A stretch of DNA of 64,000 bases from the NCBI RefSeq assembly GCF_017348835.2, contig NZ_CP071375.1; one strand, 5' to 3'. The DNA is from Escherichia coli (lineage in GTDB: Bacteria; Pseudomonadota; Gammaproteobacteria; Enterobacterales; Enterobacteriaceae). A program made the translations under genes and the position numbers. Below are positions 46,415 to 46,873 of the stretch, in pieces. Each line of letters opens with the position of its first letter. Positions within the stretch are counted from its first letter, which is position 1. A model generated the notes under the pieces. That model worked only from the letters and a program-made list of their open reading frames with translations. It was not told the DNA's origin and ran no database searches.

Positions 46415-46873
46415 TAACTTAATTTTATTTAAAAATATATTAATAAGTCACTCTCCAGGAGTTTTTTTAACTTAGTTTTATAATGAATACGATAATTAAA
46501 AGTGAAGAAGAAAATAGTTGTATACATATATTCCATGACCCTACATTGTGATCTATAGATTAAATATTTTTTAAATGTGACTGTCATCCTTCAGATAATA
46601 AAGCCATCATCGCAATAGATGGAAAAGCACTCCTGCTCTTTTTTGATTAGAGCCGTCGCAGGAGGAACAACTCATATCATCATTGCGATCTCGACAATGT
46701 ATAGTCTGATCCTTCGGCAGATCAAGACGGATAAAAAATCCAATGAGTTCACACTCATCCCGAACTTCTTAACATAATGGATATTAACGAAAAATCATCA
46801 CAGCCGATGAAATAATATGCAAAAATAATTAGTCCTTACAAGGAGCAAAGTTCCATAATCTCCCCCCTCCCCC

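Follow-up and report, generated by a model that had tools for sequence, protein, structure and literature searches.

The window, a 64,000-nucleotide stretch of Escherichia coli DNA, contains a 459-bp interval at positions 46415-46873 that lies between an immunity gene of an Rhs operon and the core gene yibH. To its left, the ORF 45977-46414 matches the Pfam family PF15596 (Imm57) with an E-value of 1.9e-48 and covers the full model. To its right, yibH is a 378-aa ORF on the opposite strand, and its stop codon (46874-46876) directly adjoins the end of the interval. These are the neighbors that an earlier reading of the letters alone (the sequence-only reading) had described, an Rhs immunity-like gene and yibH. 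The features of the interval and its flanks are as follows.

45977-46414, plus strand: Imm57-family immunity ORF, homologue of K-12 yibV, left neighbor (Pfam PF15596)
46415-46576, no strand: AT-rich non-coding segment, single-copy, always 3' of the Imm57 gene (GC 0.204, blastn)
46467-46496, plus strand: sigma-70-like hexamer pair TTAACT-N18-GATAAT (consensus scan and direct reading)
46577-46809, plus strand: internal fragment of an H-rpt/ISAs1-family transposase gene (tblastn, DNA alignment, NF033564)
46696-46812, no strand: patch of clustered polymorphism, within and just beyond the IS fragment (alignment, haplotypes)
46810-46873, no strand: terminal tail of the RhsA island, with a C-rich run beside the yibH stop codon (alignments of island-free genomes)
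46874-48010, minus strand: yibH, HlyD-family membrane-fusion protein, a core gene convergent with the Rhs operon (ORF, annotation, Pfam HlyD/CusB domains)

The GC content of the interval is 33.3%, compared with 50.7% for the whole window, and differs between its parts, with 20.4% in 46415-46576 and 40.8% in 46577-46809. The longest ORFs that touch it on either strand are both 52 aa long, at 46429-46587 on the minus strand and at 46619-46777 on the plus strand, and the interval carries no PGAP annotation in any listed genome. The AT-rich spacer without ORFs that the sequence-only reading had seen is thus indeed present. The lack of long ORFs is not surprising, as stop codons are frequent at such AT-richness.

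An alignment with K-12 (NC_000913.3), which had been proposed in the same reading, identified the interval as the yibV-yibH interval of that strain, with 96% identity over all 459 bp and no indels. Identity rises to 99% in 46415-46576. The sole K-12 annotation within these bounds is the pseudogene yibU (b4652), which maps to window positions 46579-46777, and the K-12 RefSeq record contains no RNA gene there. The interval is therefore already known, catalogued in K-12 as yibU together with a published promoter island. It is both recognizably similar to other sequence and conserved, as the earlier proposal had presupposed: at an identity of at least 90%, it was found in 3,725 of 5,426 complete E. 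coli genomes, always on the chromosome and with a median of one copy, and it is missing from the other 1,701. About 69% of E. coli genomes hold the RhsA island at yibF-yibH. Strain PE164 is among the carriers of the window allele, at 100% identity.

The genomes that lack this island define where it ends. Among the rows listed, island-free genomes align with the window only from position 46873, or from 46863 in one class, that is, from the yibH stop codon onward. Since homology ends there, the whole interval is the distal end of the RhsA island, with the island/core junction at about 46860-46873. In LF82 the site is empty, and yibF and yibH are 70 bp apart; judged by this strain, the island takes the place of 32 bp and has its left junction at window 41518/41519. 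MCJCHV-1 carries a different island in the yibF-yibH site, with a helix-turn-helix gene and fimbrial genes, which shares only the C-rich stretch of roughly 14 bp beside the yibH stop codon. The right-hand boundary of the RhsA island is accordingly placed at the yibH stop codon. A 2.1-kb query that runs from the tip across the immunity gene and the interval into yibH was covered to 80% or more in 3,669 genomes.

Several observations concern the site itself. The 70-bp spacer between yibF and yibH is a site of repeated integration (positions 2932-3001 of the LF82 locus extract, 2038-3011 of the MCJCHV-1 locus extract). In the empty state, yibI, yibH, and yibF are co-directional and close together, and the island parts yibF and selAB from yibIH. 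In NZ_CP122620.1, NZ_CM132251.1, and NZ_CM176351.1, the stretch that runs from the tip through the immunity gene and the interval to yibH is broken by IS insertions (ISEc69, IS3, and IS1), which suggests that the region tolerates disruption.

Upstream of the interval, the Imm57 ORF is preceded by a full-length Rhs protein with a Tlde1 domain (Pfam) in its C-terminal ~195 residues, and the tip/immunity pair lies at about 45450-46414. Comparison with K-12 showed that window 41400-45451 is colinear with yibF-rhsA and window 45240-47000 with yibS-yibW-yibV-yibU-yibH, the two matches overlapping in the conserved end of the Rhs core. The window strain lacks about 2.7 kb of K-12 sequence, comprising the rhsA tip, yibA, yibJ, and yibG, and the orphan tip that is the pseudogene yibS/yibW in K-12 is here fused to the full-length Rhs (gene 41519-45888). 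Recombination between the end of the Rhs core and the core fragment of the orphan could have produced such a fusion. The rhsA locus of this strain is thus K-12-like, with a toxin tip that was an orphan now part of the full-length Rhs. The tip is about 14% diverged from K-12, and the immunity gene under 1%.

The immunity gene also has a disrupted reading frame. In an identical genome, PGAP annotates 45894-46414 as one frameshifted "Imm57 family immunity protein", and the gene was called frameshifted in all five genomes inspected. By reading of the sequence, the frame changes near a run of seven T (45918-45924). When the start at ATG 45894 (MAKLLTIVFF...) is joined to the downstream frame (...SISASAVTARQF...), the result resembles a Sec signal peptide. 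A Sec-like signal would fit an immunity protein directed against a Tlde1-type toxin that acts in the periplasm. If so, an apparently intact Rhs with a Tlde1-type tip would here stand beside an immunity gene that no longer encodes its export signal.

Within the interval, the only detectable homology is to transposases. H-rpt is an IS-like element classically tied to Rhs loci, and the K-12 H-rptB transposase YhhI matches 46577-46809 at residues 96-159 in two frames (tblastn, E-values of 2e-12 and 7e-11), while a third frame extends the match weakly to about residue 179. Overall, the fragment covers YhhI residues 96 to about 173 of 378. At the DNA level, it is about 79% identical to H-rptB over about 233 bp, with three single-base indels, and its Smith-Waterman score of 230 stands against 21 +/- 2.5 for shuffled sequences (z = 84). 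The frame-repaired translation matches the NCBIfam model NF033564 (ISAs1 transposase) at model positions 68-150 of 314 with an E-value of 3.2e-17; its score of 62.7 bits lies under the full-length cut-off of 70 because only a fragment is present. In island-free genomes, the best blastn matches of the K-12 copy are annotated ISAs1 transposase genes (ybfD and ydcC/ISEc1), at 76-78% identity.

The element is heavily degraded. Its transposase residues are spread over three frames with in-frame stop codons, and no complete ORF (about 340-380 aa) is left. About 285 nt have been lost at the 5' side of the gene and about 600 nt at the 3' side, along with both element ends, so that of roughly 1,140 coding bases about 233 remain. 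We found no element ends or terminal inverted repeats around the fragment, and the sole local inverted repeat is at chance level. The flanks 46415-46576 (z 0.3) and 46831-46873 (z 0.8) showed no similarity to any part of an H-rptB element, so that an extension of the IS fragment into the AT-rich segment could be ruled out. The indels relative to H-rptB are common to the window and K-12, and the decay is therefore older than the split of the two alleles. In the divergent strain MLI121, one of these indels is missing. Taken together, by its homology, 46577-46809 is a dead internal fragment of an H-rpt/ISAs1-family transposase gene, the yibU pseudogene of K-12.

These results bear on the proposal, made in the sequence-only reading, that the interval holds degraded fragments of orphan Rhs toxin or immunity genes. 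The K-12 island does carry orphan tips and immunity genes (yibJ/yibG and yibS-yibW/yibV), and the interval belongs to that island. The remnants that this reading had named, yibA, yibJ, and yibG, are real in K-12. However, the orphan modules are all situated 5' of the interval; in this strain, yibS/yibW has become the tip of Rhs, and yibA, yibJ, and yibG have been lost. The layout of an orphan module, in which an Rhs core fragment closing with the PxxxxDPxGL region precedes ORFs for a toxin tip and an immunity protein, is absent from the interval. When compared with the K-12 rhsA locus, the interval gave one colinear match only, with no secondary match to the core or to the tips, and it bears no resemblance to Rhs core, toxin, or immunity sequence. 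The segment 46415-46576 is single-copy and has no paralogue at other Rhs loci, and the small ORFs have no convincing Pfam match. An origin from orphan toxin or immunity genes is thus very improbable. What does hold is the broader expectation of an rhs-associated remnant, which makes up half of the interval (46577-46809), although it derives from an ISAs1/H-rpt transposase rather than from a toxin or immunity gene.

It could also be argued that one of the two 52-aa ORFs, 46619-46777 on the plus strand or 46429-46587 on the minus strand, encodes a small protein. Both start with ATG, and the plus-strand ORF has the same length in K-12. This ORF, however, is the middle frame of the broken transposase, and its two alleles differ by three synonymous and four non-synonymous codon changes, as expected without selection. 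No Shine-Dalgarno-like sequence was seen 5' of it by reading of the sequence. Pfam searches with the small ORFs of the interval gave no convincing match, the best being a chance-level E-value of 0.045, and neither ORF is annotated in the genomes listed. We consider a small protein extremely unlikely.

The AT-rich segment that separates the IS fragment from the immunity gene has a different character. A sensitive blastn search located 46415-46576 at one place per genome, single-copy in 3,699 E. coli genomes, and returned no paralogue at other Rhs loci or elsewhere in E. coli. Two exact-word scans of 100,044 species-representative genomes, the first with a word that spanned a polymorphic T-run and the second with one that did not, also failed to find the segment; the species representative of E. 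coli evidently lacks the island. The T-run in question (46461-46468) varies in length, with six T in O157:H7 and MLI121, seven in the window, K-12, and O103, and eight in F9792. It lies immediately upstream of, and reaches into, the TTAACT hexamer of a published promoter-like site.

An 18-nt inverted repeat with 14 of 18 positions complementary (46427-46444 and 46559-46576) flanks this segment and ends exactly at the start of the IS fragment, an arrangement that might be read as a MITE-like, non-autonomous mobile element. A repeat as good or better, however, arose in 70 of 200 composition-matched shuffles, and both the single copy per genome and the outcome of the exact-word scans speak against mobility. 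A MITE-like element was rejected on the chance-level repeat and the single-copy segment, and its probability is close to negligible.

The sequence-only reading had also raised the possibility of a silenced promoter. For K-12, binding of both RNA polymerase and H-NS at this place has been published; for the window, the corresponding claim derives from homology. Genomic SELEX, carried out in vitro, detected an RpoD holoenzyme binding site in the K-12 yibV>yibU spacer, with the hexamers TTAACT and GATAAT, and the site is listed as a "constitutive promoter" (Shimada et al. 2014, PMC3946193, Table 3, row 81.20). Both hexamers are present in the window, TTAACT at 46467-46472 and GATAAT at 46491-46496, separated by 18 positions in the sequence versus the 15 printed in PMC3946193. 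A perfect TATAAT is found at 46479-46484. A consensus scan of 45800-47100 returned nine promoter-like hexamer pairs versus 6.1 +/- 2.3 in composition-matched shuffles, and such pairs are thus not enriched.

Promoter islands are defined by very dense predicted transcription start points (PlatProm) over at least 300 bp (Panyukov and Ozoline 2013, PMC3661553). One of the 78 listed in Table 1 of that study is a 418-bp island at yibV/yibH (3767592_418), which in K-12 is bound by H-NS in all of the ChIP studies compiled and lies within a genomic island predicted by GIST. Promoter islands are described in PMC3661553 as binding RNA polymerase yet giving almost no full-length RNA. If the table coordinates are those of U00096.2, which the other rows of the table fit, the K-12 island maps to about window 46201-46617 and coincides with the lowest-GC zone of the window. 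This placement uses an offset between U00096.2 and U00096.3 that we take to be about 1,977 bp. Because the segment is 99% identical to K-12, binding of H-NS and RNA polymerase can be inferred for the window as well, and the AT-rich part is most likely H-NS-silenced foreign DNA.

The same data could instead point to a working promoter in the AT-rich segment, whose transcript would cross the IS fragment, run antisense into the 3' end of yibH, and act as a regulatory RNA or through transcriptional interference. The in vitro binding of RNA polymerase holoenzyme in the K-12 spacer (PMC3946193) and the hexamers kept at 46467-46496 are compatible with such a promoter, as is the plus strand before yibH, on which no terminator-like site occurs. 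Promoter islands, however, are reported to be covered by H-NS and to yield little or no full-length RNA, and the hexamer pairs are not enriched over shuffles. A search of 45000-49000 against Rfam gave no match at an E-value of 1 or below. When six sub-segments were folded on both strands, z-scores ranged from +0.84 to -2.41, and none was clearly below shuffles. The empty K-12 RNA annotation further opposes a regulatory RNA. We therefore consider a working promoter unlikely, and prefer the silenced state.

No terminator-like site was found on either strand in 45800-47100. As an intrinsic terminator for yibIH, only a weak 6-bp hairpin followed by U5 was seen (46810-46790, minus strand), with a fold z-score of -0.13.

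Divergence between the window and K-12 is not evenly distributed. It is below 1% over 45800-46695 and amounts to 1-5 differences per 100 bp in yibH, while 15 of 117 sites (12.8%) differ in 46696-46812. Two haplotypes exist in this patch, of which the K-12 type is far commoner and the window type is in the minority. Agreement with H-rptB is seen at 11 of the 15 sites in the window allele, compared with 2 in the K-12 allele. We found no donor paralogue for the K-12-type patch, the best ISAs1 paralogues in E. coli being 76-78% identical. Gene conversion from an unsampled relative and an old recombination breakpoint are both possible origins. Between the two haplotypes, 46813-46873 and the first 280 bp of the interval are nearly invariant, which could hint at constraint; recent recombination explains this equally well.

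In a more ambitious reading, the patch would be the footprint of gene conversion from an unsampled ISAs1 relative, and/or the fragment and its AT-rich neighbor would have a role in recombination or silencing. If this were true, the two together would provide a fixed downstream stretch of homology and an H-NS nucleation site, which would serve as an anchor when Rhs toxin/immunity cassettes are exchanged and would shield the convergent yibH. We regard this as doubtful.

Our preferred explanation, held with high confidence, is that the interval forms the distal end of the RhsA accessory island, a non-coding spacer that is catalogued in K-12 and most likely silenced by H-NS. Its first part is AT-rich sequence on the 3' side of the last toxin/immunity cassette, which comprises the Tlde1-type Rhs tip and Imm57/yibV. 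The second is the H-rpt fragment of roughly 233 bp, which lost its terminal repeats and about 80% of the gene through deletions at both ends, and the third is the last 60 bp or so, up to where island and core meet at the yibH stop codon. The interval would encode nothing. As foreign and very AT-rich DNA, it would bind RNA polymerase and H-NS and, given its identity with K-12, would be transcriptionally silent, serving as a passive spacer that presumably receives the convergent Rhs/immunity and yibIH transcripts. The gap thus conceals neither a gene nor a toxin remnant nor an RNA element; it is ordinary leftover DNA and matters little. Outside K-12, the IS remnant lacks a PGAP annotation in all genomes listed, and a note for annotators is the sole practical outcome.

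With respect to known systems, the closest counterpart is the K-12 yibV-yibH interval, which shares with the window both its flanking genes and the indels that break the reading frame of the IS fragment. It differs from the window by the 15 clustered substitutions at 46696-46812, where the minority haplotype of the window is nearer to H-rpt. Toward the 3' end of K-12 yibV, an A-run is also one A longer, a further frameshift that shortens the gene and does not occur in the window, and K-12 keeps yibA, yibJ, and yibG upstream, all three of which the window strain lacks.

The resemblance to a promoter island consists in the listed K-12 orthologue and in the AT-rich composition of the window stretch (20-25% GC) within accessory DNA. 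H-NS occupancy is known from K-12 ChIP data only, and the promoter island spans only the first ~200 bp of the interval, together with ~215 bp inside the immunity gene.

Among the H-rpt/ISAs1 elements (K-12 H-rptB, which is yhhI; ISEc1, which is ydcC; and ybfD), homology to the fragment is clear at the protein level, with DNA identity of about 79%. Unlike an intact H-rpt, the fragment lacks terminal repeats, contains three frame changes, and can neither transpose nor encode a transposase. Its position nevertheless recalls the RhsB locus of K-12, in which rhsB, yhhH, yrhC, and yhhI (a complete H-rpt) are followed by the convergent core gene yhhJ: as in RhsB, the element is distal to the Rhs tip and immunity genes and lies beside a convergent core gene.
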